Shown here: in pieces, positions 3,028 through 49,251 of the stretch
Numbering within the stretch: the stretch's first letter is position 1
Layout of the letters: each line of letters starts with the position of its first letter
DNA from: Candidatus Woesebacteria bacterium RIFCSPHIGHO2_01_FULL_39_32
GTDB lineage: Bacteria; Patescibacteriota; Microgenomatia; UBA8517
Reading direction: 5' to 3'
Assembly: GCA_001792345.1 (NCBI GenBank)
Contig: MGGJ01000001.1
Coordinates: 153,710 to 217,709, forward strand
DNA: 64,000 nt
The notes under the pieces: generated by a model
Told to the model about the DNA's origin: nothing
Database searches by the model: none
The model's input: the letters and a program-made list of their open reading frames with translations, nothing else
Program-made: the position numbers and the translations under genes

Positions 3028-3048
3028 CTGAACTATAATAAATGAGAT

Positions 3049-5756: not shown

Positions 5757-5783
5757 GAAACGCATCAAAAACTTTTATAGAGT

Positions 5784-7772: not shown

Positions 7773-7820
7773 ATGTACAGAAAGTTGATGTTGTGAGGCT
7801 ATATAGCGTAAGATGATTAT

Positions 7821-8749: not shown

Positions 8750-8800
8750 TAGTGAGTAGTGTGTTGTGGGTAGTGGGTAGCTAAAGCTATAATATCTTCA

Positions 8801-15668: not shown

Positions 15669-16783
15669 ATATTTTGATTTTATCCTGGCGTGGCCCAGGG
15701 CATCCAAATGCCGGAGGTGCGGAACAAGTTACCTTGGAACACGCAAAGGGCTGGGTGAAAGCAGGGCATGAAGTTACTTTATTTACATCAAACTATGTTG
15801 GTGCAAAATCTGAAGAAACAGATGGTGGGGTAAAGATAAAAAGGTCGGGCGACCAATTTTTTGGCGTAAAACTTAGGGCTGCGCTTTGGTACTTAGTTGG
15901 TAAACACCCTAAATTTGATTTGATAGTAGATGAGTTTCATGGGATACCCTTCTTTACTCCTTTGTATACCAGGGCGAGGAAACTTGCATTAATTCACGAA
16001 GTAGCGGGTGAAGTGTGGAAATATAACCCTTGGCCAAAGCCCTTCAACTTAATTCCGGCATTTTCTGGAACTTTCTTTGAACACTGGATCTTTCGGATAT
16101 TTTACAGAAAAATTCCTTTTATGACTGTTTCAAATTCAACTAGGAACGATTTGGTTGGCTGGGGAGTCAAGAAAGAGAATATAACAGTAATCCAAAATGG
16201 GATAAAACTGTTCTTACCAAAAAAATTACCGCCCAAAGAGAGTAAAAGTACCGCAATGTATTTGGGTGCAATTAGTCTGGATAAAGGCACATTTGATGCA
16301 GTTCGTGCCTTTGGAGAGATTGAAAGGAAAGATGATACCTGGCAATATTGGTTAGTGGGATTTGGAACTAAGGAGCACGTTGATAAGCTTAAAAAATTGT
16401 CAACCGATCTGGGGATTTCCGAAAAAGTCAAATTTTGGGGATATGTAACAGACCGTAAGAAGTTTGAACTTTTGGCTCTCGCGCATATCCTGATTAATCC
16501 TTCAGTTCATGAAGGCTGGAGTCTCGTAAATATTGAAGCAAATAGCGTAGGAACACCAGTCATTGGCTACAACGTTCATGGTCTTAGGGACTCTGTGAAG
16601 CCTGAAAAGACAGGCATTCTTGTTCAAAAGGGAAATTTCCATGCAATAGCCGAGGAATCGCTTAAACTTATGAGGGAGAAAGAAAGATATGAAAGATTAC
16701 AAAATAATGCCAAAAAGTGGAGCAAAAAATTCACTTGGGAAAAAGCAAGAAGAGAAAGTCTTGAATTAATAGAATCACTTTGA
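15665..16783 (+). CDS. glycosyltransferase family 4
   Basis: INPSVHEGWSLVNIEANSVGTPVIGYNVHGLRDSV, the GT4 C-terminal signature. Confidence 0.75.
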   Translation: MNILILSWRGPGHPNAGGAEQVTLEHAKGWVKAGHEVTLFTSNYVGAKSEETDGGVKIKRSGDQFFGVKLRAALWYLVGKHPKFDLIVDEFHGIPFFTPLYTRARKLALIHEVAGEVWKYNPWPKPFNLIPAFSGTFFEHWIFRIFYRKIPFMTVSNSTRNDLVGWGVKKENITVIQNGIKLFLPKKLPPKESKSTAMYLGAISLDKGTFDAVRAFGEIERKDDTWQYWLVGFGTKEHVDKLKKLSTDLGISEKVKFWGYVTDRKKFELLALAHILINPSVHEGWSLVNIEANSVGTPVIGYNVHGLRDSVKPEKTGILVQKGNFHAIAEESLKLMREKERYERLQNNAKKWSKKFTWEKARRESLELIESL

Positions 16784-17779
16784 AGACTTATTTTTTTCTT
16801 GCCATTCTTTCGTCCAGATAATAGTTCTTTTTATACCTTCTTCTACAGGTATCTTTGGGCTATAATTAAGAAGTTTTCGCGCTTGTGTAATATCTGCAAT
16901 GTAATGGGTTACTTCCCCAACACGCTTTGACAGTTCAACTGAAATTCTTGGTTTTATATTCAAGTTCTTAGCAATAAGCCTAGCAATTTTCAGTAAACTA
17001 TTCCCAGTCCCGTATGCTAAGTTGATAGTTTCATTTTCAACACTTCCTTCTAGTAATTTCTTAATCCCAACCATAATGCCGTCAACACAGTCGTCGATAT
17101 ATGTAAAATCAAGAATTTTTTTCCTGCCGAATATTGTCACACCTTTATTATTTATCATTTTATTAATGAAAAGTGGAATTACACGTTCCATTCTTTCCAA
17201 ATCGTTATCGTATCTACCGTAAACATTTGAAAAACGAAAAACTAAGTATTTTAATCCATAACATCGTGCATACGAATAAATAAGGGCTTCGCCAGCGATT
17301 TTACTAGCTGAATATGGACTTTCTGTAAACGAGAAATGTGCCTCATTTTCGTTTGTAATGTAGTGATGAATATCTCCGTATACTTCGCGAGATGATGAAA
17401 AAATTATTGGAAGATTGTTATATCGACAATATTCCAAAACATTAAAGGTTATATTAATATTTTCCAAGGCACGATGCGGTTCTCTAACCAAGTCGTGCAC
17501 CTTTGCATTGGCGGCTAGATGTACCACAAGGTTGCATTTTGGATAAGGAGCCAATCCAATTCCACCCGTGAAGTTATGCTGAAAAGCTGCTAAATCCTGC
17601 AAAAGGGTCGGGAATTTATCAGTCCAATTATTTGGTCTTACGTCTACTCCAAAAACATCGTAACCTTCTGAAAGCAATTTCAAGGCAAGATTCGTTCCGA
17701 TTTGTCCACTCGAGCCCGTAATTAAAATACGATACTCCTTTTTGCTTATACTTATTTTTCTTGGACTTTGAATTTCCAT
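16775..17779 (-). CDS. NAD-dependent nucleotide-sugar epimerase/dehydratase (extended SDR)
   Basis: ILITGSSGQIGTNLALKL Rossmann motif and a YSASK catalytic motif. 334 aa. Confidence 0.7.
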   Translation of the reverse strand: MEIQSPRKISISKKEYRILITGSSGQIGTNLALKLLSEGYDVFGVDVRPNNWTDKFPTLLQDLAAFQHNFTGGIGLAPYPKCNLVVHLAANAKVHDLVREPHRALENINITFNVLEYCRYNNLPIIFSSSREVYGDIHHYITNENEAHFSFTESPYSASKIAGEALIYSYARCYGLKYLVFRFSNVYGRYDNDLERMERVIPLFINKMINNKGVTIFGRKKILDFTYIDDCVDGIMVGIKKLLEGSVENETINLAYGTGNSLLKIARLIAKNLNIKPRISVELSKRVGEVTHYIADITQARKLLNYSPKIPVEEGIKRTIIWTKEWQEKNKSSK

Positions 17780-17786
17780 TTAGAGG

Positions 17787-18635
17787 TTAATATTTCTCTA
17801 CCTTATGTTCGGTTAGATGCTGCTCTTTAAGAATTCTTCGGTTTGCCGATCGTGTTGCTTTAATTAACTCCGCCGGAACCCGCAGTGTATCACAGAATTC
17901 AATGTAACTATTTACATCTTTTGGGAAACAGGGACCACCATAACCACGTTTATCGTTATGAAATATAGTCATGTATCGAAGTATCCCAGGCCCGATAAAT
18001 TCTGAAGCGGCAAATCCATCCCGTACATTTTCATAATTACCTTTAAGTTTTTTGCAAACCTCATATAAATGATTGGCATAAATAATTCTTATTGCACCGA
18101 AGACATTATGGGCGTATTTGATAAGTTCTGCATCTGATGCTTTTACAATTTTTTGATATTTTCCCTTAGGAAGTATAGACATTATCTCTTGTGTCTTCGG
18201 CTTAGATCTACTGGTATATCCCAAGATTTGCCTATCTGGTATTTCAAAATCAGCTCTTGCAGTTTTTCGAGATAAAAATTCTGGGTTAAAAAGTATATAT
18301 AGCTTGGAATACTTTTTTTGTAATTTTTCTGTAAATCCTGGCCAAACTGTACTTTTTAATACCACAATTTTGTTAGGTGCAACTTTTTTAACAACCTCAT
18401 TTACGATTGTAAAGTTTGCCTTTTTCTTAGCAAAGTCATAGGGAGTTGGAACACAAACAAAGATAATGTCACATTTGTCATTAATTTCTTCCCAAGTACT
18501 TTCTGGAAAACCACTCTTATGATTTGTTGAAATTCCATAGACAGGATATTTATGTCTTTTATAATACGAGTAGGCCTCGGAGCCAACCATTCCTGTGTGT
18601 CCGATAACACCAATTGTTTGGGTTTCGATGAGCAT
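17787..18635 (-). CDS. UDP-glucose/GDP-mannose dehydrogenase-family protein, short form lacking the C-terminal UDP-sugar-binding domain
   Basis: N-terminal GVIGHTGMVGS NAD fold and a CVPTP motif. The catalytic Cys motif GGPCFPKD (canonical GGSCFPKD) sits at ~aa 238, but the protein ends at 282 aa. Confidence 0.55.
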   Translation of the reverse strand: MLIETQTIGVIGHTGMVGSEAYSYYKRHKYPVYGISTNHKSGFPESTWEEINDKCDIIFVCVPTPYDFAKKKANFTIVNEVVKKVAPNKIVVLKSTVWPGFTEKLQKKYSKLYILFNPEFLSRKTARADFEIPDRQILGYTSRSKPKTQEIMSILPKGKYQKIVKASDAELIKYAHNVFGAIRIIYANHLYEVCKKLKGNYENVRDGFAASEFIGPGILRYMTIFHNDKRGYGGPCFPKDVNSYIEFCDTLRVPAELIKATRSANRRILKEQHLTEHKVEKY

Positions 18636-18748: not shown

Positions 18749-19759
18749 ATGGCAGCGAATATAAAAAAAAATAATAAAGAGAGTTTAGCAAGGAAGAAGG
18801 TTCTGGTAAGTGGAGCGGGAGGTTTTATTGGAAATCATTTAGTTACTTTTCTTAGGAAAAAGGGATATTGGGTACGCGGAGTTGATCTCAAATACCCGGA
18901 GTATTCTCTAACCGATGCTGATGAGTTCGAATTACTGGATTTGAGACGTTGGGATAACTGTCTTCAAGCAACTCGTGGCATCGAAGAAGTGTATGCTCTT
19001 GCAGCGGATATGGGGGGGATGGGTTTTATATCGTCTCATCACTCTGAGATTCTTCGGAATAACGCACTTATAAACATTCATACTTTGGAAGCTTCACGGG
19101 TAAACGGAGTAAAGCGTTATTTTTATACATCTTCTGCTTGTGTTTATCCTGAGTATAAACAAACGGAAACAAACGTAGTTCCGCTTAAAGAAGAGGATGC
19201 CTATCCTGCACAACCTCAAGATGCGTATGGGTGGGAAAAACTGATAATCGAAAGACTATGTCATCATTATCGTGAGGATTATAGATTGGAGACGCGTATT
19301 GTTCGCTTTCATAATATATTTGGTCCCTTGGGATCATGGGAAGGTGGTCGTGAAAAAGCTCCTGCAGCAATGTGTAGGAAAGTTGCCACTGTAAAACTTA
19401 CCGGTAATCATGAAATTGAAGTTTGGGGAGACGGAAAGCAAACACGCTCGTTTTGCTATATTGATGACTGCGTCGAAGGAATTTACCGATTGATGCGTTC
19501 TTCGTTTCATGAACCGCTAAACTTAGGACAGGACAGGCTCATTAGTATCAACGAGTTGGCGAAAATGGTAGCGAAAATTGCAGGAATAAAAATTAAGATT
19601 AAGCATGTTGAAGGACCGCAGGGAGTAAGAGGAAGAAATTCGGATAATAGCAAGCTTCGAAAAGTTCTCAAATGGGAGCCAAAAATATCTTTAGAAGATG
19701 GTTTGGCTAAAACATATTCTTGGATTGAAGATCAAGTAAGAATTAAATTCCATAAATAA
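18749..19759 (+). CDS. GDP-mannose 3,5-epimerase (GME)-like extended SDR
   Basis: Long near-identical blocks to plant GME: LAADMGGMGFI, SSACVYPEYKQ, DAYGWEKL, RFHNIFGP, GGREKAPAAMCRK, GDGKQTRSF, GPQGVRGRNSDN. Confidence 0.75.
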   Translation: MAANIKKNNKESLARKKVLVSGAGGFIGNHLVTFLRKKGYWVRGVDLKYPEYSLTDADEFELLDLRRWDNCLQATRGIEEVYALAADMGGMGFISSHHSEILRNNALINIHTLEASRVNGVKRYFYTSSACVYPEYKQTETNVVPLKEEDAYPAQPQDAYGWEKLIIERLCHHYREDYRLETRIVRFHNIFGPLGSWEGGREKAPAAMCRKVATVKLTGNHEIEVWGDGKQTRSFCYIDDCVEGIYRLMRSSFHEPLNLGQDRLISINELAKMVAKIAGIKIKIKHVEGPQGVRGRNSDNSKLRKVLKWEPKISLEDGLAKTYSWIEDQVRIKFHK

Positions 19760-20833: not shown

Positions 20834-22225
20834 ATGTTAGACAATAACTTAAAAATAGCGAAACTTTGGCAAAAATATTATCTTCAGAATAATTACTATC
20901 ATCAAGATATACACCGTTTGGTAAAAAAAATAATCCCTCCAGATGCCTCTATACTAGAATTCAGTTCCAGGGGTGGGGAATTATTAGCAGAGTTGCCAAA
21001 TAAGAATAAAACTGCATCAGAATTTGACAACGGACTTTTGCAATTACTTTATAGTAAAAACAAAAAAACCAGAGTCATTGATGCAAAAAAGCTCCCATCG
21101 AGAAGCAAGAAAAAGTATGACTATATTTTGCTATCACACACTCTATCGGAAATAGATAATATTCAAGATTTTATTGGAAAAATAAAAGTACTTTGTCGCG
21201 ACGATACAAAAATTGTTGTATTTCATTTTAACTATTTATGGAAACCACTTCTCGATACAGTAGAAGTTCTAGGATTGATAATGCCTTCTCAAAAAGAACC
21301 GAATTGGCTATCTCAGTCGGATATTGACAATTTTTTTATCTTAGAAAGTTTTGTAAAAGTCAAGCAAGGACAAAGCTTTCTTTTTCCGTTTTTTGTCCCC
21401 TTTGTTTCCGATCTGTTGAATCGTATATTTTCTCAGATCCCCCCCTTTTCTTATTTTTGTTTAACAAGATATGCGGTTTATAAACCCATAAAAGAAAAAA
21501 AAGATTTTTCAGTTTCGATTATTATTCCCGCACGGAATGAGGCCGGAAATATGAAGAGAATCTTTAATAAAATTCCAAGTTTAGGAACATCAACTGAAAT
21601 CATTTTTGTAGAGGGTCATTCAAGAGATGATACCTACGCAACAATAAAAAAAGAAATAGCAAATTATAAAGGACCGTTAAAAGCATCTTTATGTAAACAA
21701 AAGGGAAAGGGTAAAGGCAATGCTGTGAGGCTTGGTTTTTCGAAGGCACATAACGAGCTATTGATGATTCTGGATGCAGATTTAACCGTTGATCCTAAAG
21801 AGTTACCAAAATTTTATTGTGCAGTAAGAGACGGTATCGCAGATTTTGTGATGGGTTCCCGACTTGTATATCCAATGGAAAAACTCGCCATGCGGACGTT
21901 AAATATTTTCGGGAATAAATTTTTTAGTATTGCTTTTTCTTTTTTACTTGATCAAAGGATTAAAGATACATTATGTGGAACAAAAGTTCTATTTAGAAAA
22001 GATTATTTAATGATCGCAAAAAATAGAAAGTTTTTCGGAGATTTTGATCCCTTCGGTGATTACGATCTTATTTTTGGAGCATCAAGGCTTAATTTGAAAA
22101 TTGTCGAAGTACCAATTAGATATAAAGAGAGAACATACGGAAAGACAAACATCAGTAGATTTAGACACGGCCTTCTACTTTTGCAAATGGTTTTATTTGC
22201 AGCTAGGAAATTAAAATTTAACTAG
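20834..22225 (+). CDS. fusion: degenerate class-I methyltransferase-like N-domain + GT2 (Dpm1-like) C-domain
   Basis: The N-terminal ~230 aa carry MTase-like motifs (ILEFSSRGGELLAEL; YDYILLSHTL). A hydrophobic linker follows. The C-terminal half has VSIIIPARNEAG...ILDADLTVDP of GT2. Confidence 0.55.
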   Translation: MLDNNLKIAKLWQKYYLQNNYYHQDIHRLVKKIIPPDASILEFSSRGGELLAELPNKNKTASEFDNGLLQLLYSKNKKTRVIDAKKLPSRSKKKYDYILLSHTLSEIDNIQDFIGKIKVLCRDDTKIVVFHFNYLWKPLLDTVEVLGLIMPSQKEPNWLSQSDIDNFFILESFVKVKQGQSFLFPFFVPFVSDLLNRIFSQIPPFSYFCLTRYAVYKPIKEKKDFSVSIIIPARNEAGNMKRIFNKIPSLGTSTEIIFVEGHSRDDTYATIKKEIANYKGPLKASLCKQKGKGKGNAVRLGFSKAHNELLMILDADLTVDPKELPKFYCAVRDGIADFVMGSRLVYPMEKLAMRTLNIFGNKFFSIAFSFLLDQRIKDTLCGTKVLFRKDYLMIAKNRKFFGDFDPFGDYDLIFGASRLNLKIVEVPIRYKERTYGKTNISRFRHGLLLLQMVLFAARKLKFN

Positions 22226-24794: not shown

Positions 24795-25937
24795 ATGCAT
24801 AAAAAGAATGTTTTAATTACAACCTCCCACTTTCACCCAAATGTAGGTGGGGTTGAAACACATTTGAATGACTTAGTATTGGCATTAAATAAAAGAAACT
24901 GGGAGGTAATCGTTGCCTGTTATAAACCTTTAGCAAGAGATATTAAAATTCCATTTGTTGAGAAGAAAAGTAAGAAACTACTAATTTATCGAATGCCGTG
25001 GGTGGGATTTAATCTGGTACATCTTTTAACCCCTTATCCAGTTCTTGAGTTTTTATATCTTTTCCCAGGACTTTTTCTGGTCAATTTGTATGCATTAATC
25101 AAGCATCCCGAGATTAACGTAATTCATTCTCAGGGATTGGTTCCGGGAGTTGTTGGTATAGTACTCGGAAGGATTTTTAATAAAAGGGTTATTGTGAGCA
25201 CTCATAACTTATATTTTTTCCCCCAAAATGGTTACTACAAGACTTTTTCGGCTTGGATATTATCTTTTGCCGATACTATATTGACGTTATCCAATCAATC
25301 AAAAGATGAGATAGCGAGAATTGGAGTACCAAAAGAGATGATTAAACCCTTTCGTTATTGGCTTAACCTAAAAACATTTAAACCAAAAGATAAAATTATT
25401 GCCAGAGGAAAGCTTGGATTAAATGAAAGCTTCATAGTCTTTTTTGTGGGTAGACTTATTGAAACTAAGGGAGTGAAAATATTAATGCAGGTAAGCAAAA
25501 ATTTAAAAAATGTAACCTTTATTTTTGCTGGATTAGGACCCTTACAGGAAGATTTGAATAAACTTTCTGCTAAACAAAAAAATCTTAAATATGTTGGTTT
25601 ACTTTTTCCCGAGAAAGTGCGTTTATATATGAGTGCATCCGACGTTGTTGCTGTGCCTTCGACCGTCGACGAAGGTTACGGCCGGGTTGCAATGGAGGCG
25701 CTAGCCTGTGGAACGCCAGTCTTTGCTGCCAACAAAGGAGGCTTGAATGAAGTAGTCACTAAAGACGTGGGACTATTAGTAAATCCAAATCCTAAAGATT
25801 ATAACAATGCAGTTAAGTTTGCTTTAACAAATCGGAAAATATTAAGCAATCTTGCTAAAAATACAAGGAGATATGCATTGAGGTACTTTGGCGAGAAAAA
25901 TGTTGAAAAAATTATTGATTCTTATGAAGGTAAATAG
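24795..25937 (+). CDS. glycosyltransferase family 4 (tandem paralog 2)
   Basis: TSHFHPNVGGVETHLNDL and DEGYGRVAMEALACGTPVFAA. Clear paralog of the upstream gene. Confidence 0.7.
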   Translation: MHKKNVLITTSHFHPNVGGVETHLNDLVLALNKRNWEVIVACYKPLARDIKIPFVEKKSKKLLIYRMPWVGFNLVHLLTPYPVLEFLYLFPGLFLVNLYALIKHPEINVIHSQGLVPGVVGIVLGRIFNKRVIVSTHNLYFFPQNGYYKTFSAWILSFADTILTLSNQSKDEIARIGVPKEMIKPFRYWLNLKTFKPKDKIIARGKLGLNESFIVFFVGRLIETKGVKILMQVSKNLKNVTFIFAGLGPLQEDLNKLSAKQKNLKYVGLLFPEKVRLYMSASDVVAVPSTVDEGYGRVAMEALACGTPVFAANKGGLNEVVTKDVGLLVNPNPKDYNNAVKFALTNRKILSNLAKNTRRYALRYFGEKNVEKIIDSYEGK

Positions 25938-27249
25938 CACCTTTCCTCTTAGGTGTTTTGGTTCTTTTCGAATTAGATACAGTTTTTAAAAGTTTTATCT
26001 TTGGAGATCCGTTTTTCGAACGTACTATTTTTCGCCTATTTTTAACAACGCGATTATTTTTGTTATAATTTTTTAGAGCGATAGTTTTTTCACCATCTAC
26101 TGTTTTGATTGTATTTACCCAAACGCGCATGCAATATGCAAGGTGGTGAAAGTATCCTCGAGTTGCCGTATTCCAAACAAACCCGTCAAATTTTTGTACC
26201 GCGTCCTCCATTTGGTAAGCTAGACTCAAGTAACTTTCAGTATAGGTTGAACCATCAAGTTTTACTTCAGTTAGCCATTGAAGTAAGTCTTCTAAAACGG
26301 TAATACAGCCAAGCTCTTGTTGAATGTCTTTGAGATGGTTGTGCGAGTTTCTTATATGTTTTACTATCGGAGACCCGATTCTTATACCATACCCTAAATG
26401 TTTTACACATGTTTGGGCAAAATAGCCACTAAAAATATCTCCATACCGGTCGATTGGTAATCCTGAAAGTGTGTACCCCATTTTTACAAACCAATAAGAG
26501 GGAATTACTGCTTTGTTTAATCCGGTGTTTTGTGTATTTATTGTAGTCCAAGTATTTTTACTAAGCACTACAGAGCGATTGGAGAATGAAGATGCGTATG
26601 GTTTAACCCCGAGCCAAGTAATTGCGTCAACATCGGGTTCTTTTAACCATAGGCCAGTATTGATATGCACATCGACTTCTGAATTTTTTTCTTCAATTTG
26701 ATCTTCAGAAAATCTGGCAAAATAAGGATAGCCTCTGGGGTATACAACTCCAGTATTTCTAAATTTAAGTAAACTGCAGTTATTAAACCAACCGTTGGGA
26801 TTATGAACTACGTTTTGCCTCGTCTCGCCACTACCTACAACAGTATGTTCTTTATAAAAATTAGTGCCCTCAATAGGGTAATTATCGTCATCAATAGAAA
26901 TAACAATTTCATCCCCCGAATCATAAGCCATTAGATAACCGATATTCCTGCGATTATCGGAGTCATAGGGAACAATATTATAAATAGCCCCTAGCTTTTT
27001 TAAATATTCTTCCTGCTCTTCTAGCGTTGGACAATTAATGTTAAACCCGAAATCTTTAAGTATTTGGCATTTCTGGTAAAGTTCATGGGGGCTTTTACGA
27101 TCGGGGATAACAATGATTCTTGTTCGATCTACAACCCCCTCCTCCATCATTTTTTTTGTATAGGAAGTTAAAAAAGACCCATCAAAGATAGAAGTTACAA
27201 TTACAGAAATATTTTTTGGTTTATTTTTCCTTTTGTCTCTTTTTTTCAT
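25912..27249 (-). CDS. reversibly-glycosylated-polypeptide (RGP)/GT75-like protein, UDP-arabinopyranose mutase-like
   Basis: Blocks matching plant RGP/UAM: ISIDDDNYP (DDD), PRGYPYF (cf. RGYPFS), TGLWLKEPDVDAITWL (cf. HGLWLNIPDYDAPTQL), IDRYGDIFSGYFAQTCVKHLGYGIRIGSPIVKH (cf. [33 protein letters not shown]). Extra Lys/Arg-rich N- and C-terminal tails. Confidence 0.55.
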   Translation of the reverse strand: MKKRDKRKNKPKNISVIVTSIFDGSFLTSYTKKMMEEGVVDRTRIIVIPDRKSPHELYQKCQILKDFGFNINCPTLEEQEEYLKKLGAIYNIVPYDSDNRRNIGYLMAYDSGDEIVISIDDDNYPIEGTNFYKEHTVVGSGETRQNVVHNPNGWFNNCSLLKFRNTGVVYPRGYPYFARFSEDQIEEKNSEVDVHINTGLWLKEPDVDAITWLGVKPYASSFSNRSVVLSKNTWTTINTQNTGLNKAVIPSYWFVKMGYTLSGLPIDRYGDIFSGYFAQTCVKHLGYGIRIGSPIVKHIRNSHNHLKDIQQELGCITVLEDLLQWLTEVKLDGSTYTESYLSLAYQMEDAVQKFDGFVWNTATRGYFHHLAYCMRVWVNTIKTVDGEKTIALKNYNKNNRVVKNRRKIVRSKNGSPKIKLLKTVSNSKRTKTPKRKGAIYLHKNQ

Positions 27250-27977
27250 GAAATTAACTCATTCCACAGAACCTTTAAATTTTCTCTCCCTGTTTTAAAA
27301 GATGGCATTGTTGTTTCTCCGTGGATGCGTTTTCCTTCTTTTGTAGGAAAATCAGCAATCTTTACATTGTATTTGAGTGCACGAATAATTTGTTCATAAT
27401 CTGGGGCAACTGGGTTAGGTATATTTATTTTAAGTTTTTTCCATGCATTGCGTGTAAACGCTCGATATCCTTGGGTCGTGTCCGTACACTTATTTCCATT
27501 TCTCCCCCAAATAATGTTTGCAATAATAGCCAATCCTTGATTAAACCATTTACGCGGTTTTAGGATTTGATCATCTTCTTCATTATATGCTCTCTTTATC
27601 ATTCGTGAAGCTACTATAAATTCATGGCCTTTTTTTAGAAGTTTTACAAATTTATTTATGTCTTTAGGATCCATATTCCCGTCAGGATGAAAAAATATTA
27701 AAGCATCTTCTTTCGTGCTTCTGAATGCTGATTCATACGCTCCTCCAACACCTTTATATTTTTGTCCGAAAACTTTTATTCTTTTACTTTTCCAAAATTC
27801 GGAAGTTCCGTCGTTAGAATTACCGTCTATTACGTAAATTGCGTCAACTAAATTTCTAGGAATTTTGGAGTAAATTAATTCCGAATTTTTTCTTTCATTT
27901 CTTGTAAAAATAACAAGAGCAACTTTCATTTGAGGTCGTAAGCATAAAATACATAGAAACCTATAAAAAATCAACAA
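27246..27977 (-). CDS. glycosyltransferase family 2
   Basis: VALVIFTRNERKN...VIDGNSNDGT. Confidence 0.7.
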   Translation of the reverse strand: MLIFYRFLCILCLRPQMKVALVIFTRNERKNSELIYSKIPRNLVDAIYVIDGNSNDGTSEFWKSKRIKVFGQKYKGVGGAYESAFRSTKEDALIFFHPDGNMDPKDINKFVKLLKKGHEFIVASRMIKRAYNEEDDQILKPRKWFNQGLAIIANIIWGRNGNKCTDTTQGYRAFTRNAWKKLKINIPNPVAPDYEQIIRALKYNVKIADFPTKEGKRIHGETTMPSFKTGRENLKVLWNELIS

Positions 27978-28027
27978 TTGAATTAGTTATATAGCAAAAA
28001 ATTATTACCTAATGTAGAATTGTTGTT

Positions 28028-29965
28028 ATGTTTTTGGGAAAAAATATAAATGTCAAGTTATTTTTATTTGTGACTTTCGCAGTTACAGTAATTAATTTAA
28101 TAATCCTTCAACCAGTAATTAAATATCAATTAATCGAACTTGCAGATGATTGGATATGGATGGTTTATTACAAATCCTTGTCCCATATGCCTCTTCTAGC
28201 TAAACTTTGGTATATCTGGAAAAAGGTTGGTATTCATGAGAGTGGTTATGCTATATACGTGGGACTTTTAGGGGAGATTCTTGGTATGAATTACCAGGCA
28301 TATAACTACGTGAATATTTTTTTTAAAATACTTTCTGCGGTAACGCTCTTTCCTCTGATCTTAATTGTTTTTAAAAATAGATTATTGGCTACTATTACTA
28401 CTTTTATCTATGGAATTACTTCGGCCTCCACAGGATCTTTGTACTGGATGATGAAAGGAGGAATGTATCTGGGAATTACTTTTATGAATTTATTTTTGTT
28501 ATCCTACTATTTTGCTGTTACAAAGAAAAAAATCTTTTGGCTAATACTTTCCTCGATACTAATATTTATAACGTACATTAGTTCGGCAGTAAGAGTTTAT
28601 CCGGTTTTTCCGATTATTATATTAATAGAAACTATTTGGCTTATTTTTAATCGTTCAAAAGGGGATGGCAAATTCTTACAAATAAAAGTACGTGAGTTAA
28701 AAACTTCAATAATACGAATTGTTGCCTTTTTCCTACCAGTGTTCTTGGTAGCATCACGAGCCCCAGTTTCTCCTCACGGCTTTATCGGAAGGAAAACCGT
28801 AATGCTTTTAACTGACATCAAAAACGGAAATTTACACGATTTGCTTTCTCCTCTTGCTGGAATTGGATCTTCATTTTTACCTAATTATTTTTGGAAATAT
28901 TTTGGAGATATAAACCCGAAAACTTTTGCAAGCTTCGGTAATTATTTAATTTTTCTTTTCAAACGACCACTTCCAATATTCTTTTTAGCCACTATTATTC
29001 TTTCGAGATTAATTTCCAAAAGGCCTAAAAGATTTATTGTTATTGTATTAATTCTTAATTTTATTTTTGAACTTATGTTGTTTCCTATTACTACTTACCA
29101 TTTTAGTATTCCGAAAGAGTTAGTGTTTGAATACGATAGTGTTATTTTCTACTTTATTAAATACCCTACACTAATGGCTGTGTACGTACTTAGCGTTGCT
29201 ATCGCGAGTTTTTTTGAAATGAGGTTTGATGCGAAAAATAAATTACTGTTGACTTTATGGGTAGGTCCTTTATTTTCGGCTATATTTATGTTGTCGATGT
29301 GGATACTAATTGGGTTTCTGGTTAATGCGTATAGTAGCACTGGATATTATTTCGCCATACCCGCAATAGGAATGTCGCTTTTTACATCCTCAATTCTTGT
29401 ATTAATGTATGAAAGATCCAAAGATAGAAAATTATTTAATCTGATACCTCTTGTTGTTATCATTGGGTTCTTAATTTCATTTTATAAAACAAGTAAACTT
29501 GAAATTCACAGAGATTTTACAAGCGATAATCCCGGAAAGATTACAATTCAAGACGTGAATATTTTGCATAGTAATTTATTGGAAGATTTGGGAGACGCCT
29601 CTAAGTCTGGTAATATATTGATATATTTTGAAATTCCTAACGCTACAGCTTCCGGTAATCTGAGACTGGGACTTTTAGGTTTCCCTCAGATGGTTGTTTG
29701 GCAGCGAAACAATGAAGGTATTGGATGTGTGGATTCGTTAACAGATAAAGAAAAACTTCAAATGGCATTTCGATCTGATACGCAGAAACAGGGATTTAAT
29801 TCAAAAGGAGAGTGTGTGTTTAAGACGTCGGTCCCAACAATCAACGAATATGCCGATAAAGAAAATATTTTTTATACAACCAACGATTTTTATGCTTACA
29901 GATTTGATGGTTTAACCCCCATTGATATTCGTGGCGAAGTTCTTGCAGAATTGGCGAATAAATAA
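28028..29965 (+). CDS. large polytopic membrane protein, putative GT-C-fold glycosyltransferase
   Basis: 645 aa with 12 or more TM helices and a C-terminal soluble domain of ~150 aa. Context. Confidence 0.4.
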   Translation: MFLGKNINVKLFLFVTFAVTVINLIILQPVIKYQLIELADDWIWMVYYKSLSHMPLLAKLWYIWKKVGIHESGYAIYVGLLGEILGMNYQAYNYVNIFFKILSAVTLFPLILIVFKNRLLATITTFIYGITSASTGSLYWMMKGGMYLGITFMNLFLLSYYFAVTKKKIFWLILSSILIFITYISSAVRVYPVFPIIILIETIWLIFNRSKGDGKFLQIKVRELKTSIIRIVAFFLPVFLVASRAPVSPHGFIGRKTVMLLTDIKNGNLHDLLSPLAGIGSSFLPNYFWKYFGDINPKTFASFGNYLIFLFKRPLPIFFLATIILSRLISKRPKRFIVIVLILNFIFELMLFPITTYHFSIPKELVFEYDSVIFYFIKYPTLMAVYVLSVAIASFFEMRFDAKNKLLLTLWVGPLFSAIFMLSMWILIGFLVNAYSSTGYYFAIPAIGMSLFTSSILVLMYERSKDRKLFNLIPLVVIIGFLISFYKTSKLEIHRDFTSDNPGKITIQDVNILHSNLLEDLGDASKSGNILIYFEIPNATASGNLRLGLLGFPQMVVWQRNNEGIGCVDSLTDKEKLQMAFRSDTQKQGFNSKGECVFKTSVPTINEYADKENIFYTTNDFYAYRFDGLTPIDIRGEVLAELANK

Positions 29966-29967
29966 TA

Positions 29968-30816
29968 ATGAGATCTTCAGAGATTTACTCAAAAAAGAAA
30001 GTTAACAATATTTCTAGAATTCTTGAAAATGTTGGCGATATTGCACTTAGAAAACGTGCTGAATGGCTAATTAATAACTTGCATTTGAAAAAAGGAGAAA
30101 AAGCACTAGACGTGGGTTGCGGTGATGGGTTTTATCTGCACATATTGTCTAAATTAAAAATCAACCTAAAACTTTATGGTATAGATAACGATAAAAAGGC
30201 GTTAATAACTGTAGCGGCACGTTTTAAGAAAAAAGAAGTAAAACTCTTTTGGTGTGATTTGATGAGGAAATTACCGTATAAAAGTAATAGTTTCGATAAG
30301 GTTATAATGAGCGAGGTATTAGAACATCTTCAAGACGACAAGGTGGGGTTGAAAGAAGTTTATAGAGTTCTAAAACCAAATGGAATTCTTTGTCTTTCAG
30401 TACCAAATCATCGATATCCTTTCCTTTGGGACCCCGTTAACTGGACACTTGAGCATATGCTTAAAACTCATCTAAAGTCTGGATTTTGGGCAGGAATTTG
30501 GAATCAGCATATAAGACTATATGAAAAAAGAGAACTTAAAGAGATTGTTAAAAATGCTGGATTTAAAGTTAGAAAGATACAATCTTTGACTCAGTGGAGT
30601 TTACCTTTTAATCATTACTTGGTTAATTTAGGTGCACGTCTTCTTACTAAAAAAAGTTTTAACGTTGTAACCAGTGGAGCTAATAAGTTCGAAGAAAATG
30701 TCAAAAGATCTTTTACGGTAAATACCTTTTTTGCAATTAGTAATTTGATTGACCGTTTAAATAGTTCGAAAGAATTAGAAGTTGGAGTATCCTTGGTTGT
30801 CAGCGCTAAAAAGTAA
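29968..30816 (+). CDS. class-I SAM-dependent methyltransferase
   Basis: ALDVGCGDGFY motif I; RVLKPNGILCLSVPN motif. Confidence 0.7.
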   Translation: MRSSEIYSKKKVNNISRILENVGDIALRKRAEWLINNLHLKKGEKALDVGCGDGFYLHILSKLKINLKLYGIDNDKKALITVAARFKKKEVKLFWCDLMRKLPYKSNSFDKVIMSEVLEHLQDDKVGLKEVYRVLKPNGILCLSVPNHRYPFLWDPVNWTLEHMLKTHLKSGFWAGIWNQHIRLYEKRELKEIVKNAGFKVRKIQSLTQWSLPFNHYLVNLGARLLTKKSFNVVTSGANKFEENVKRSFTVNTFFAISNLIDRLNSSKELEVGVSLVVSAKK

Positions 30817-30865
30817 CTAGCATTTATTGTTATTTTAAAAAACGTTGATATACTAGAATAGCAAT

Positions 30866-31339
30866 ATGCCACGAAGTAAAAAAATATTCTTTTTAATTTC
30901 CTTGTTAATTATCATTGGTCTTTTTGTTTTAAATGCAAAATCTGCAAATCCCAATAATCAACCGTACTATAACGCAAAACGCTTGTATGAAAAAACTTTA
31001 TTAGCACTTAAAACCAATCCCGAAAAAAAGTTAGATTACCAACTCAGTCTTTTAGATAAAAGACTGAGTGAGCTATCCTTTATTGTACTAAATGGAAAAT
31101 CGGAGCATATTTTAAAAACATCTTTGAGATACTCAACAACTGCGGGACAGTCTACAGAACAAGTCATAAATAATAATTTGAAAGGAAGATCTGATGGAGT
31201 AAAACAAAAATTGGAATCGCATCTTAAAGTAGTCGACAATCTTGTGGCTAATTATCCAAAAGACGATGGACAGAAAAAATTTGTAATCGATGCTAGCAAT
31301 TACTTAAAAACTTACATAATTCAGTTAACAACAAATTAG
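30866..31339 (+). CDS. small secreted/membrane-anchored hypothetical protein
   Basis: 157 aa with an N-terminal hydrophobic signal/anchor (FFLISLLIIIGLFVLNA), then a hydrophilic domain. Confidence 0.4.
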   Translation: MPRSKKIFFLISLLIIIGLFVLNAKSANPNNQPYYNAKRLYEKTLLALKTNPEKKLDYQLSLLDKRLSELSFIVLNGKSEHILKTSLRYSTTAGQSTEQVINNNLKGRSDGVKQKLESHLKVVDNLVANYPKDDGQKKFVIDASNYLKTYIIQLTTN

Positions 31340-31369
31340 AATACCACTATAAAGAAAGCTCCAACAAAA

Positions 31370-32149
31370 ATGTATGAAGAAATTGACGCTGTACTTATCG
31401 ATTTAGAAAAATATTTAAAGAAATTTCTTCGGACTAACAAACCGCTAAAACATTTAATGCGGGATTCTTTTGTAGATCATAAAGGTAGGTACAAAAGCGA
31501 TTTGCAAATAATATCAAAATTTTGTAACAAGAAAGGTAGGATACTTGATGTTGGATCTGCACCGTGTCATTTAATTTATTGCCTTTCCAAACTGGGATAC
31601 AATGTTGTAGGACTCGATATAGATCCAAGCGTTGTCGGACCCTTTTTAAAAGAAAATAAATTAGTTGTTATAAAATGTGACTTAGAGGTCGATACCATTC
31701 CTTTTAAAAGAAAGAGCTTCGATTTTATAATTTTTAACGAAATATTTGAGCACTTGAAAATAGATCCTATCGGGACATTAAAAAAAATTCACTCTCTGTT
31801 AAAACCCGGTGGTCTTTTTATATTAACTACACCGAACCTTTATTCAATCCACAAAATTATTATGTTTAATTTGGGGATGAGCTTTAATAATGCATATTTT
31901 GAATTTAAAAAAATGGAGAAATATGGATACATGGGGCATATTCGTGAATACTCAACTAAGGAGATGAGACTACTTCTTGAAGAAGCTGGATTTAAAATTA
32001 TTAAAGTATTATACAGGAATTACAGTCGTTTCTCCGACAACAACTTAATCAAAAAAATGCGCCTTGTTCCATTAGCCTATGGTCTTGACTTATTTTCTTA
32101 CATAGTACCTAAATTGCGGTTTTCTCAAGTGATTATTTGCAAATCATAA
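31370..32149 (+). CDS. class-I SAM-dependent methyltransferase
   Basis: ILDVGSAPCHL motif I; LKPGGLFILTTPN. Confidence 0.65.
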   Translation: MYEEIDAVLIDLEKYLKKFLRTNKPLKHLMRDSFVDHKGRYKSDLQIISKFCNKKGRILDVGSAPCHLIYCLSKLGYNVVGLDIDPSVVGPFLKENKLVVIKCDLEVDTIPFKRKSFDFIIFNEIFEHLKIDPIGTLKKIHSLLKPGGLFILTTPNLYSIHKIIMFNLGMSFNNAYFEFKKMEKYGYMGHIREYSTKEMRLLLEEAGFKIIKVLYRNYSRFSDNNLIKKMRLVPLAYGLDLFSYIVPKLRFSQVIICKS

Positions 32150-32156
32150 TTAACGT

Positions 32157-33095
32157 ATGTCGAGAAAGAAAAATTTATTAAATTTGGTAGATAAGGCGAT
32201 TAAAAAATACTTTCAGGAATCAAATACGCTGCAATTTTTGGCTGATAATAGATATAACAGGCGAATTTTTTCAACAACAGGCCAGTACGATTGGTTTTCG
32301 GGGCAGCTTTTGTACTTTTTAGTAAGACACACCAAGCCAAAAATTATAGTCGAGATTTCAACTTCATCCGGCTACTCAACACTTTTTATGGCTTTAGGCT
32401 TAAAGAAAAATGGTTTTGGCAAAATCCATACGTTTGATATGGACGCAAAAGCATTAAAAGCAGCCGAGAAGAACTTTAAGAAGTATAAAGTAAAAAAATT
32501 TGTTAAAACTCACTTAGGAGATGCGCGAGTCGAAATAGATAAAATAAAAAATCTAAAACATGCTGGCCTTTATTTTCTTGACTCAGAGCATACAGAAGAA
32601 TTTGCCCAGTGGTTTATCGAAAAACTTGTCGTTCCAGCAAAAGAAAGTGCGCTCTTTACCACGCACGATATCATGCCTGTCTACGCGAAAGTTCGAAAAT
32701 ACAACGGCCCTCCATGGACTTTTACCAACTTACATTTTTATAGAACCCTATTATTTAAATTTAAAAGCAAAGTTGAGGGAATAGATTTAGGTTTGGAGAA
32801 TCTAAAACTTAACATAAAAAAGCCAAAAAGTAAAAATGGACTTTATGTTTATGATGGCAACGAAGGTTCGGAGCCATCATTTGGCAATAAACTTGTATCG
32901 TACATGGAAAAGGGAGAGTATCTCTATTGCTACGATATCGCCGACAAGTATGCAAAATTACTCCAAAGTCGAAAATATGATTACTTTGCACGAGGATTCC
33001 AAAATGAAGAAGGGAAACCTTATGAATGGAATCATTCTCTTTGGGCTTATTCCGGCGCAGTAAAGGCTGCATATCAAAAGTTCTTACTTACTTAA
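32157..33095 (+). CDS. class-I SAM-dependent methyltransferase-like (O-methyltransferase family-3-like core)
   Basis: IVEISTSSGYSTLFMALGL...GKIHTFDMD...LGDAR resembles the catechol-OMT-like family-3 fold. A long C-terminal extension follows. Confidence 0.45.
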   Translation: MSRKKNLLNLVDKAIKKYFQESNTLQFLADNRYNRRIFSTTGQYDWFSGQLLYFLVRHTKPKIIVEISTSSGYSTLFMALGLKKNGFGKIHTFDMDAKALKAAEKNFKKYKVKKFVKTHLGDARVEIDKIKNLKHAGLYFLDSEHTEEFAQWFIEKLVVPAKESALFTTHDIMPVYAKVRKYNGPPWTFTNLHFYRTLLFKFKSKVEGIDLGLENLKLNIKKPKSKNGLYVYDGNEGSEPSFGNKLVSYMEKGEYLYCYDIADKYAKLLQSRKYDYFARGFQNEEGKPYEWNHSLWAYSGAVKAAYQKFLLT

Positions 33096-33189: not shown

Positions 33190-34842
33190 ATGAATAATTC
33201 GAGAAACAAAATTGTCGCCATTATTCCTGCGGGAGGCATGCCAAATAATATTCTTACTCAGTCTGGCAATCTTCCCGATGCAATGGTTCCGATAAATTGC
33301 AAACCTGTAATTGGCTATATTATTGAAGATCTTATTGAGCGAGGAATAAGAAAAGTATTTGTAATACTAAATTCGTCTGACGAATATACGGAAAGCTACC
33401 TTAAAAATAAGTTTAAAGACAAGCTTTTTATCAACGTAATTTATCAAGATTTCTTAGAAAGAGGTGTGGGATATGCAGTTTATTTGGCCGTGAAAAACAT
33501 TTCAAGAAACGAAAAAGTATTAGTTTATTTAGGGGATACTATTTACAAAGGTAAACTTACGTTTAATGAGAACGCTCTTGTAACGTCAAACATTTATGAA
33601 GAAAGTACCAAATGGTGTTTTGTAGAAAACAAAAAAGAAGGATTATTATTTATAGATAAACCAAAAAATTACCTCGGCGAGGGAAAGGTGTTATGTGGTT
33701 TGTATTTTTTTAAGAAGGGAGCATTGGTTAGAAAGGTAGCGGAGGAGCTAGTAAGAAATATTAAAAAGATCGAAATGAGCGACATTCTAACAATCTATAG
33801 CGAAAATCAAAAATTCAAGTTGGTAAATGCAAAAAGATGGTACGATTGCGGGAACATTGAGAATTATTACAAAGCAAAGATAGATTTTTTAAAAGTAAGG
33901 CACTTTAACAAATTAATATACAATGATCTTTTTGGAAGTATTACAAAATCAAGTAATAACAGCGAGGATTTTAATAAAATTGACGACGAGATTAATTGGT
34001 ATCTAAATTTACCACAAGATCTTCAAATATTTGCTCCAAGACTAATTGATTATAGAAAAACTAAAAGAAACTCGAATTATTCATTGGAATTTTATGGGTA
34101 CCAAAGCTTAGCTGATTTATTTGTTTTTAATAGTTTGGATTTGAGAGTTTGGACTTCAATAATTAAAAAGTTGTTTGAAATAATTGAAGAATTCCGAAAA
34201 TATAAGGTGGACATTCCATATAAGAATTACTATGAAATGTACTACGTTAAAACGATTAAAAGAATAGAAATGTTAGAAAAAAGAAAATATTGGCAAGAAA
34301 CTTTTTCTAAAGAATATGTTTTGATTAACGGAAATAAGATAAAAAATATTAAATATTATTTAGACGCTATTAAGGTTTCTGTTAAGAAGCTTTACACAAA
34401 GAAGGAAATGGCGTTTATACATGGCGATCTTTGTTTGGGAAACATTCTTTTTGACCCAACCAATAAGATTTTTAAGTTTATCGATCCAAGGGGAAGTTTT
34501 GGAAAACAATCTGTTTATGGTGATTTGAAATATGATCTTGGGAAGTTAAGACATAGTTTCCACGGGCTTTATGATTTTATTACAAGCGATCTTTTTACAA
34601 TTAAAAAAGATGGGTTTAGATATTTATTTAAAATCTATTCTGAAGGGCGCCATAAGGATATTGGTAATATTTTTGACAAAGAGCTTATCAAAAATGGTTT
34701 TAATCTCGAGAAAATAAAACTCATTGAGGCATTACTCTTTGCTTCAATGATACCAATACACAAAGATTCACTTGAAAGGCAGAAAGCAATGTATCTCACT
34801 TCAGCGATTTTGTTAAACGAAATAGATTTCACAGCTTTATAG
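33190..34842 (+). CDS. bifunctional sugar-phosphate (or phosphocholine) nucleotidyltransferase / APH-like small-molecule kinase
   Basis: N-terminal IVAIIPAGGMPNN...LPDAMVPINCKPVIGYIIEDL matches the NTP-transferase fold. C-terminal IHGDLCLGNILFD...FIDPRG is the Brenner/APH-choline-kinase catalytic motif. Confidence 0.65.
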   Translation: MNNSRNKIVAIIPAGGMPNNILTQSGNLPDAMVPINCKPVIGYIIEDLIERGIRKVFVILNSSDEYTESYLKNKFKDKLFINVIYQDFLERGVGYAVYLAVKNISRNEKVLVYLGDTIYKGKLTFNENALVTSNIYEESTKWCFVENKKEGLLFIDKPKNYLGEGKVLCGLYFFKKGALVRKVAEELVRNIKKIEMSDILTIYSENQKFKLVNAKRWYDCGNIENYYKAKIDFLKVRHFNKLIYNDLFGSITKSSNNSEDFNKIDDEINWYLNLPQDLQIFAPRLIDYRKTKRNSNYSLEFYGYQSLADLFVFNSLDLRVWTSIIKKLFEIIEEFRKYKVDIPYKNYYEMYYVKTIKRIEMLEKRKYWQETFSKEYVLINGNKIKNIKYYLDAIKVSVKKLYTKKEMAFIHGDLCLGNILFDPTNKIFKFIDPRGSFGKQSVYGDLKYDLGKLRHSFHGLYDFITSDLFTIKKDGFRYLFKIYSEGRHKDIGNIFDKELIKNGFNLEKIKLIEALLFASMIPIHKDSLERQKAMYLTSAILLNEIDFTAL

Positions 34843-34843
34843 T

Positions 34844-35605
34844 ATGAAGCTAACAATTAACAATTCTTTTAAACAGGGTGTAAACATTTTAATACCCATG
34901 TCTGGAGCTGGAAGCAGATTCGTAAAAGCTGGCCATACAGCCCCAAAACCATTAATAAAAGTAAAAGGTAAAACGATGATCGAATGGGCGATGAAATCGT
35001 TTAATTTTTTAAATAACATACCTAGGTATCGAATTATTTTTATAATCAGAAGATCCGATATTGATAATTATAAGATCGATAAAACTCTAAAAAGTTTATT
35101 CGGAAAAGAAATTATACTGGTAGTAAAAGATAGTAATGAAGTTAAAGGTCAGGCATACGATTGCTTACTTGCAAGAAACTACATCGACACCCAAAACCCA
35201 CTTTTTATATATAATTGTGATACATATTCGCTTTCAAATGTTTGGGATGTTGTTTTAAAGTGGGATCCGGATGGTGTAATACCATATTTTAAAAGCAATA
35301 ATCCTCGATACAGCTTTATTAAAATTGATGAAAAAGGAAATATCATACAAACTACAGAGAAAGTTCCCATATCGATGATGGCTTCTTCCGGAATGTATTA
35401 CTTTAAAATGGGCCATGATTTTTGTGAAGCAGCTGAGGAAATGATATCCGAGAATGAGTCTTACAACAAAGAATACTATGTAATACCTACTTATAATCGA
35501 TTGATAAAAAAAGGGAAAATAGTTAAACCAGCAAAAGCAACTCTTAATTGGATTCTTGGAACACCAGAAGAAATGGAGCGCTTTATCCAATTTTACAAGA
35601 GATAA
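34844..35605 (+). CDS. nucleotidyltransferase (sugar-phosphate/LicC-like NTP transferase fold)
   Basis: LIPMSGAGSRFVKAGHTAPKPLIKVKGKTMIEW, the G-X-G-X-R...K-P-L signature. Confidence 0.6.
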   Translation: MKLTINNSFKQGVNILIPMSGAGSRFVKAGHTAPKPLIKVKGKTMIEWAMKSFNFLNNIPRYRIIFIIRRSDIDNYKIDKTLKSLFGKEIILVVKDSNEVKGQAYDCLLARNYIDTQNPLFIYNCDTYSLSNVWDVVLKWDPDGVIPYFKSNNPRYSFIKIDEKGNIIQTTEKVPISMMASSGMYYFKMGHDFCEAAEEMISENESYNKEYYVIPTYNRLIKKGKIVKPAKATLNWILGTPEEMERFIQFYKR

Positions 35606-49220: not shown

Positions 49221-49251
49221 ATTATTTTACCCATTTAGTAAATTCAAATAT

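Follow-up and report, generated by a model that had tools for sequence, protein, structure and literature searches.

A GT75 protein of probable MtdL/Hyg20 type in a Woesebacteria surface-glycan locus, and a possible route to a lipid-linked L-galactofuranose donor

Introduction

Which sugar is handled by a homologue of plant sugar mutases that is encoded in the main surface-glycan locus of a bacterium of the Candidate Phyla Radiation (CPR), and where would the product go? The question is raised by a stretch of 64,000 nucleotides from Candidatus Woesebacteria bacterium RIFCSPHIGHO2_01_FULL_39_32 (contig MGGJ01000001.1, positions 153,710 to 217,709 of the forward strand), referred to here as the window, in which an open reading frame (ORF) encodes a 445-amino acid (aa) protein of glycosyltransferase family 75 (GT75). 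An earlier note on this DNA had taken the protein for a bacterial UDP-arabinopyranose mutase (UAM) related to the plant reversibly glycosylated polypeptides (RGPs), and had proposed that it provides a UDP-furanose donor for an arabinofuranose-type polymer. The comparisons reported here uphold membership in the RGP/GT75 family, the DxD motif and the conserved Arg being intact, but indicate that the protein is very probably a GDP-L-hexopyranose mutase of the MtdL/Hyg20 type. The gene is thus probably an additional member of this kind, and the substrate and product first assigned to it are probably wrong.

The GT75 protein and its family

The ORF and all of the motifs that had been quoted from it are present in the translation. 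The motifs read in the protein are SIDDDNYP (D120-D122), PRGYPYF (R172) and GLWLKEPDVDA (D206/D208), together with IDRYGDIFSGYF (R268, D271) and CVKHLGYGIRIGSPIVKH (H298). The search against PF03214 (RGP) that the earlier note had suggested gave a significant match of 72.7 bits (cut-off 23.8, E=4e-20) over profile positions 26-340 of 342. The likeness to GT75 is far beyond chance. The alignment also bears out the Arg that was expected to be reversibly glycosylated, as R172 in PRGYPYF aligns with the Arg in RGYPF of the plant-named UAM structure 8cid. The NCBIfam scan returned zero family matches, and no FAD-binding family was matched in the Pfam and NCBIfam scans. FAD-dependent UDP-galactopyranose mutase (Glf/UGM) does the same job, the supply of a nucleoside diphosphate (NDP)-furanose, but is unrelated in fold and cofactor.

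In the public record, the product of this gene (P0001) is named 'hypothetical protein A3F01_03890, partial' and comes from a Candidatus Woesebacteria bacterium, a CPR genome from Rifle groundwater. It is a 302-aa N-terminal fragment with 100% identity. The public record ends at residue 302, yet the ORF in the window consists of 445 uninterrupted codons. The window has ~34% G+C and zero ambiguous bases.

Relationship to MtdL and choice of nucleotide

Among all PDB sequences, four entries labelled 'Transglycosylse' (7xpr, 7yua, 7xpu and 8hl8) matched residues 14-386, a span that defines the catalytic body of the protein, at E about 2e-102 and 346 bits. The corresponding values for 8cid, the one plant-named UAM structure behind this comparison, are E=3.8e-6 and 28.9 bits. 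A profile built from 28 family members likewise scored MtdL at 436 bits versus 46 bits for UAM. The 7xpr series represents MtdL, the nearest characterised relative, which serves the A201A pathway of Marinactinospora thermotolerans as a GDP-L-galactopyranose/GDP-L-fucopyranose mutase of family GT75 and for which structures and mutants have been described (PMC9937993). The alignment to MtdL shows 42.6% identity over 366 aa, and tblastn identities to the loci of M. thermotolerans (L066) and Streptomyces hygroscopicus (L062), the latter taken to encode Hyg20, are 41-42%.

Residues of MtdL with assigned roles and mutant phenotypes (PMC9937993) were mapped onto the Woesebacteria protein. T13, I15, D40, S86, D87, R90, D109-D111 and R159 correspond to T19, I21, D50, S97, D98, R101, D120-D122 and R172, and D195, Q229, R257, D260, H287, R289 and H292 correspond to D206, Q240, R268, D271, H298, R300 and H303, respectively. 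Conservation therefore extends to the Mn2+ ligands (D122 and H298), the loop A and diphosphate contacts (R268, R300 and H303), the ribose and base contacts (T19, I21, D50, S97 and R101), and the sugar pocket with the proposed catalytic Arg/Asp pair (D98, D120, R172, D206, Q240 and D271). All six sugar-pocket residues whose mutation is lethal to MtdL activity (D87, D109, D195, Q229, R257 and D260) are identical here. The only differences among the mapped functional residues are N42 to K52 and S228 to T239. In the tetramer interface of MtdL, L295, L298 and V302 are replaced by L306, I309 and L313 with hydrophobicity kept, and E341 by Q352.

For a wider comparison, 80 related loci were assembled, one genome per species, with 10-kb flanks. 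The mapped active-site positions are invariant or nearly so across their GT75 genes, D120-D122 and H298 being invariant. Lys occupies position 52 in 74 of the 80, including that of S. hygroscopicus, so that the Asn of MtdL is the exception.

Of the guanine-selective contacts of MtdL (T13, D40, N42 and S86), all but N42, which is K52 here, are kept. The nucleotide is indicated by two of these residues. In MtdL, the substitution T13P weakens GDP binding about 28-fold and S86D abolishes it; both changes turn MtdL towards the plant UDP-using sequence, as plant UAMs and active RGPs carry Pro and Asp at these positions (PMC9937993). Because the protein studied here has Thr19 and Ser97, a GDP-sugar rather than a UDP-sugar is indicated. 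Its likeness to the class 1 plant enzymes of GT75 (UAM/RGP, such as OsUAM1 and AtRGP1-3) comprises the Pfam family, the DDD motif and the reactive Arg, and is predicted to include dependence on a divalent cation and the type of reaction, in which an NDP-pyranose becomes an NDP-furanose. At the third DxD motif, this protein reads DVD and plants have DYD (PMC6861824). A basic N-terminus and a C-terminal tail of 59 aa that is not conserved set the protein apart from MtdL and Hyg20, and position 52 is Lys where MtdL has Asn42.

Substrate supply

As the sugar pocket is identical to that of MtdL, the context must decide between L-galactose and L-fucose; for the characterised relatives, GDP-L-Fuc is as good a substrate as GDP-L-Gal in vitro. 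The locus encodes a GDP-mannose 3,5-epimerase (GME), a source of GDP-L-galactose, whose alignment shows every catalytic position (Cys, Tyr-x3-Lys, Lys and Arg) to be kept. In 23 of the 80 loci, a GME orthologue (49-63% identical, >290 bits) lies no more than 10 kb from the GT75 gene. These linked GME genes usually share the strand of the GT75 gene and are often <130 bp apart from it. The M. thermotolerans mtd cluster is one such case, with the GME gene 83 bp upstream of mtdL, and GME activity has been reported in the A201A pathway (PMC6678494). No GME was found within 10 kb in the S. hygroscopicus locus. A GDP-fucose route from genes of the window was considered and rejected, as orthologue-level resemblance to GMD or Fcl was seen in none of the short-chain dehydrogenases/reductases (SDRs) of the window that were examined. 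Since a GME orthologue is present, its linkage to GT75 recurs and no SDR is GMD/Fcl-like, GDP-L-galactose is favoured and, as judged by gene context alone, is most likely the substrate here.

Next to the GME gene, and divergent from it, 17787-18635 (-) encodes a 282-aa protein of the UDP-glucose/GDP-mannose dehydrogenase family, in which a Rossmann motif (IGVIGHTGMVG) and the central domain are present and the C-terminal NDP-sugar-binding domain is missing. This gene forms an operon with an unclassified SDR gene at 16775-17779, the product of which scores 113 bits to 4-epimerases versus 75 bits to UDP-glucuronate decarboxylase (UXS). A UDP-arabinose route was also looked for, using the dehydrogenase-like gene and three SDRs, of which one is the GME and two are unclassified epimerase/dehydratase-like proteins; it is unsupported though not strictly excluded.

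Three other accounts of the enzyme can be set against these data. Were it a plant-like UAM converting UDP-L-arabinopyranose to UDP-L-arabinofuranose for a polymer built by AftD-type proteins, the common Pfam family and the presence of AftD-like enzymes in the locus would be explained, and the dehydrogenase-like protein and the adjoining SDR might in principle open a way to UDP-xylose and UDP-arabinose. The score to MtdL is, however, about ten times that to the plant-named UAM, Thr19 and Ser97 are of the GDP type, the SDR is closer to 4-epimerases, the dehydrogenase-like protein lacks its C-terminal domain, and instead of a clear pair of UDP-xylose synthase and 4-epimerase the locus offers a strong GME orthologue. 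This account is very improbable, and it is here that the earlier note fails: a role in furanose supply is still the best reading, but a UDP-furanose donor and an arabinofuranose polymer are unsupported. An RGP-like protein that glycosylates itself or has a regulatory role and is devoid of mutase activity, as the inactive plant RGPs of class 2 are, is scarcely credible. Catalytic inactivity does occur in some GT75 members, among them AtRGP5 (PMC9937993), and the terminal tails are unusual, but the Mn2+-binding His and the beta-phosphate Arg that AtRGP5 has lost are present (H298 and R268), together with all residues whose mutation kills MtdL. A physiological substrate of GDP-L-fucopyranose, as for Hyg20, with GDP-fucose made elsewhere in the genome and L-fucofuranose as the product, would fit the same enzyme. 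The sugar-contact residues are shared, so that sequence cannot separate the two sugars, and 57 of the 80 loci have no GME within 10 kb; the GME in the window, the lack of a GMD/Fcl-like SDR among those examined, and the recurrence of the GME linkage, often as the adjacent gene, make this unlikely, though it is a real alternative.

Genes coupled to the GT75 gene

The genes and segments under discussion are listed in Table 1.

Table 1. Positions in the window of the GT75 gene, its terminal segments and associated genes.
Feature	Position	Strand	Basis
Putative GT75 NDP-pyranose mutase, MtdL/Hyg20 type, 445 aa, ATG start	25912..27249	-	ORF, Pfam RGP, MtdL match
Lys/Arg/Asn-rich C-terminal extension of the GT75 protein, aa 387-445 (59 residues), and stop codon	25912..26091	-	Homologue alignment
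Basic N-terminal stretch of the GT75 protein, MKKRDKRKNKPKN	27211..27249	-	Homologue alignment
Small family 2 glycosyltransferase (GT2), no membrane-spanning helices, Dpm1/AglJ-like	27246..27977	-	Pfam GT2
Polytopic membrane protein, 645 aa, predicted glycosyltransferase C (GT-C) fold, divergent from GT2-GT75	28028..29965	+	AlphaFold/Foldseek, synteny
Methyltransferase dependent on S-adenosylmethionine (SAM), 282 aa, immediately downstream of the GT-C gene	29968..30816	+	Pfam methyltransferase domains
GDP-mannose 3,5-epimerase (GME), GDP-L-galactose source	18749..19759	+	E=7e-119 to Arabidopsis GME 2c59
Methyltransferase-AglJ/Dpm1-like GT2 fusion, 463 aa, second candidate polyprenyl-phosphate glycosyltransferase	20834..22225	+	Pfam, NCBIfam
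AftD-like GT-C, 723 aa	38880..41051	+	Pfam PF11847 GT-C_AftD, 35.1 bits, cut-off 26

The stop codon of the small GT2 gene overlaps the start of the GT75 gene as ATGA, as read in the sequence, and the two genes are translationally coupled. The true start of the GT2 gene is probably the ATG at 27929, which gives a product of 227 aa. The sole PDB match of this protein is the Pyrococcus dolichol-phosphate mannose synthase (DPMS) 5mlz (E=3.6e-9), and a crude hydrophobicity count found at most one weak hydrophobic segment. In L001 (Candidatus Daviesbacteria) and in L002, orthologues that are 70-74% identical are found directly upstream of GT75, and in L081, the contig of the closest relative, a GT2 gene again overlaps the GT75 start. 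In all, short GT2s with best matches to PgfS, ArnC, AglJ or dolichyl-phosphate transferases adjoin the GT75 gene in ~21 of the 80 loci, which represent at least six phyla besides the CPR bacteria. In L005, from a Candidatus Cybelea genome, a homologue (37% identical) of the 463-aa methyltransferase-GT2 fusion is encoded directly upstream of GT75.

The 645-aa protein encoded divergently from the GT2-GT75 pair has no Pfam or NCBIfam match and only eight detectable homologues. A crude count gave 11 hydrophobic helices, and the residues D41-W42, just after the first helices, are invariant. Its AlphaFold model (mean predicted local distance difference test 79.5, predicted template-modelling score 0.82) was compared with the PDB by Foldseek, and the top eight matches are all GT-C enzymes (PglB, ALG12, STT3, ArnT and Pmt4; probability 0.97-1.0), with DPY19 and AftA lower. 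The gene order is syntenic in relatives: an orthologue of the GT-C gene is divergent from GT2-GT75 in L001, L002 and L081 (P0121 in the latter), and in L081 a 282-aa methyltransferase also follows beyond P0121. A further member of this GT-C family, P0128, is fused to a GT2 domain with best PDB matches to ArnC, DPMS and GtrB.

P0128 is an 870-aa fusion protein (L082, 2793-5405), and its gene adjoins genes for a DegT aminotransferase and a GFO/IDH oxidoreductase, which suggests that this GT-C family handles an amino sugar in L082. A second fusion of the GT2/GT-C-like kind is encoded within the window itself at 45810-48524 (+). This 904-aa protein has an N-terminal GT2 domain and a membrane domain of ~10 helices, the latter weakly similar to the 645-aa protein (E=1.9e-5) and to P0128 (1.5e-6).

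Ten polytopic proteins encoded near GT75 genes were scanned; three belong to recognised GT-C families, four had no match, one is of the Wzx type and two are unrelated transporters. The recognised GT-C genes beside GT2-GT75 are of the GT87 family in L015 and L067 and PIG-V-like in L020. In L015 (Terriglobia, 1997-6039), genes for a Dpm1-like GT2, GT75, GME and GT87 follow each other on one strand, the GT2 appearing split into two ORFs. In L020 (Verrucomicrobia, 7783-12247), the PIG-V-like gene is divergent from GT2-GT75-GME. L067 (Planctomycetales) includes GT2, GT75 and GT-C genes, and no epimerase within 10 kb.

Proposed pathway and alternatives

From this gene content the following pathway can be drawn. 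GME would convert GDP-D-mannose to GDP-L-galactopyranose (step 1), which the GT75 protein would bind by way of an Mn2+ ion coordinated by D122 and H298; by analogy with the mechanism put forward for MtdL, R172 would attack C1 with D271 as the base, and contraction of the ring would give GDP-L-galactofuranose (step 2). The Dpm1-like GT2 would then move L-galactofuranose (L-Galf) onto polyprenyl phosphate (step 3) and, after flipping, the divergent GT-C, and perhaps the AftD-like GT-Cs as well, would add L-Galf to an envelope glycan outside the membrane (step 4). Step 1 is proposed because of the strong GME orthology, and step 2 because of the 43% identity to MtdL and the fully conserved active site; with L-galactose as the sugar, these two steps are on balance probable, as far as can be read from the protein sequences and their setting. 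Steps 3 and 4, drawn from gene order, weak family similarity and the fusion protein, are plausible yet tentative. The hand-off to polyprenyl phosphate and the use by a GT-C are supported by the synteny, the fusion, the Dpm1-like GT2 neighbours, the GT-C families and the compact cassettes in other phyla. Taken as a whole, the proposal that GME, GT75, a Dpm1-like GT2 and a GT-C constitute a recurrent, previously undescribed cassette making a lipid-linked L-galactofuranose donor for extracytoplasmic glycosylation of the envelope is given a probability of roughly one in three (0.35).

Several observations weigh against this proposal. The best NCBIfam matches of the GT2 are to AglJ (71 bits) and dolichyl-phosphate hexose transferase (45 bits), for which the cut-offs are 325 and 375. 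The GT-C model was obtained from nine sequences, and the Foldseek template-modelling scores are only 0.27-0.42. Large membrane proteins are encoded near GT75 in 13 of the 21 loci with a Dpm1-like GT2 versus 23 of the 59 others, a modest difference based on a crude hydrophobicity count, and several of those checked are transporters or flippases and not GT-Cs. A GtrA-like flippase was not found beside the module, as the tightly packed genes at 24795-33095 include no small four-helix membrane protein. As for the sugar, GME also makes GDP-L-gulose, the GME gene lies 6.2 kb from the GT75 gene on the opposite strand, and no GME is present in L001, L002 and L081, the closest relatives, within the flanking sequence compared.

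In an alternative account, the mutase would act as proposed, but its product would be used by the small GT2 as a conventional cytoplasmic L-galactofuranosyltransferase, acting on a lipid-linked or soluble acceptor, the GT-C being unrelated. GT2s of the GlfT type use UDP-Galf. The failure of every match to polyprenyl-phosphate transferases to reach its curated cut-off and the near absence of hydrophobic segments would suit such an enzyme, and the ordinary GT2 and GT4 enzymes and Wzx-type flippases of the locus suggest assembly in the Wzx/Wzy style. Nevertheless, DPMS is the only PDB match of this GT2, its pairing with the GT-C is retained in relatives, a member of the GT-C family is fused to an ArnC/DPMS-like GT2, and GT-C families that depend on polyprenyl-phosphate sugars (GT87 and PIG-V) flank GT2-GT75 in other phyla. 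A conventional GT2 is accordingly rather unlikely.

If the cassette acts as proposed, its closest counterparts are the GtrB/GtrA/GtrC, ArnC/ArnT and Dpm1-PMT/ALG systems, to which it would be similar in that the GT2 loads polyprenyl phosphate and the GT-C uses the sugar outside the membrane. Three-component systems of the Gtr type have a dedicated small flippase; none is encoded beside the module here, and the Wzx-like proteins sit elsewhere in the locus, away from it. A parallel may also be drawn with the mycobacterial system of decaprenyl-phospho-D-arabinofuranose (DPA) and the Emb/Aft enzymes, as a furanose donor would be provided for AftD-like GT-Cs, and L-Galf is the hexose homologue of D-arabinofuranose. 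However, the mycobacterial DPA donor is made from phosphoribosyl pyrophosphate (PRPP), whereas the cassette here would be fed by a nucleotide sugar.

MtdL and Hyg20, the only characterised bacterial GT75 enzymes, serve antibiotic pathways (A201A and hygromycin A, respectively), and their partners are natural-product tailoring enzymes. The likeness to them comprises the whole aligned catalytic body, with identical contacts to Mn2+, diphosphate, the GDP base and the sugar and an identical catalytic Arg/Asp pair, as well as a linked GME gene as in the mtd cluster. Here, the same type of enzyme, its active site intact, is found in a CPR bacterium within a cell-envelope glycan locus of ~50 kb. Its gene is coupled to those of a Dpm1-like GT2 and a GT-C, and the same partner genes recur across soil and groundwater phyla. 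If the proposal is true, L-hexofuranoses would be ordinary building blocks of the envelope in uncultivated lineages, L-Galf being known so far essentially from one antibiotic, and GT-C enzymes would have a second way, fed by a nucleotide sugar, of obtaining lipid-linked furanose donors. The record now named 'hypothetical protein, partial' would also gain a specific name. The plant-like assignment to UDP-arabinofuranose, which is corrected here, would misdirect sugar analysis.

Distribution and previous accounts

GT75 relatives of the Woesebacteria protein were found in 973 clusters at 90% identity (E<=1e-10) and, among 1.84 billion representatives, in 223 clusters at 50% identity (E<=1e-30). 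In one genome for each of 185,579 species, a pattern-based scan gave 179 matched stretches at which a relative was confirmed, from Acidobacteriota, Verrucomicrobiota, Planctomycetota, Actinomycetota, Gemmatimonadota, Nitrospirota, CPR bacteria and others. The 90%-identity cluster search also included an archaeal relative from Candidatus Helarchaeota. Hence, the family is small, uncommon per genome and phylogenetically broad, and the earlier description of it as rare outside plants holds for its frequency per genome but not for its spread over many phyla. As CAZy already lists bacterial and archaeal GT75 entries, a bacterial GT75 is not new in itself.

In the literature searched, no account was found of a link between GT75 and a polyprenyl carrier, of an envelope-glycan context for GT75, or of a partnership with Dpm1-like GT2s and GT-Cs. 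L-Galf as a structural sugar, bacterial L-galactofuranose glycans and polyprenyl-phosphate-L-Galf were likewise not found in that literature, and L-galactofuranose is described as 'hardly found in the environment' in a 2020 review (PMC7700177).

Terminal extensions

The Lys/Arg-rich tails to which the earlier note had drawn attention are both present, but the C-terminal one is not a feature of the family. None of the 27 aligned homologues has it, not even those that are 64-69% identical; they end 1-3 residues past the aligned 'DG', and C-terminal tails >30 aa occur in only 4 of the 80 loci. The DNA encoding the tail is A-rich, overlaps a convergent GT4 gene by 26 nt and includes a terminator-like hairpin at 25936-25957 (+) for that gene. 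The tail is thus probably a lineage-specific late stop, with read-through into otherwise intergenic DNA, and would have no conserved role. A function as a membrane anchor was considered and rejected as a conserved feature, as no close homologue has the tail and it overlies convergent intergenic DNA.

The basic N-terminus is common to most of the 64-69% identical homologues by composition and not by sequence (for example MNENKKKKTRKKN and MKKDRKTK), and more distant homologues are without it. That it aids association with the membrane is speculation.

Other features of the window

The glycan-synthesis locus extends from ~8.8 kb to at least 60 kb of the window. It includes many GT2 and GT4 genes and also encodes GT-C proteins, two Wzx-like flippases and methyltransferases, the SAM-methyltransferase domains numbering at least seven. 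The setting in a glycan locus with AftD-like GT-Cs, as first described, is confirmed by the 723-aa protein, which passes the Pfam GT-C_AftD threshold. Two paralogues of this protein, encoded at 49165-52788 (1207 aa, E=9e-48) and 53286-56090 (934 aa, E=1e-10), both on the + strand, have no Pfam match.

At 33190-34842 (+), a sugar-1-phosphate nucleotidyltransferase domain and a weak APH-type kinase domain are fused in a 550-aa protein, and a second nucleotidyltransferase gene follows at 34844-35605 (+); the pair could form a module for the salvage and activation of a sugar. Among the glycosyltransferase genes, a NodU-like carbamoyltransferase (36034-37797, +) and a full-length ornithine/aspartate carbamoyltransferase (42300-43250, +) are encoded, and these hint at a carbamoylated glycan.

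A scan of the whole window against Rfam gave zero matches above the gathering thresholds. An IS200-like Y1 transposase gene (635-1318, -) lies at the edge of the window, and the 515-aa ORF at 1480-3027 (+) combines an N-terminal vitamin K epoxide reductase (VKOR) domain with a dihydroorotate dehydrogenase domain. In this fusion, a membrane domain that handles quinones may be linked to a dehydrogenase that depends on them.

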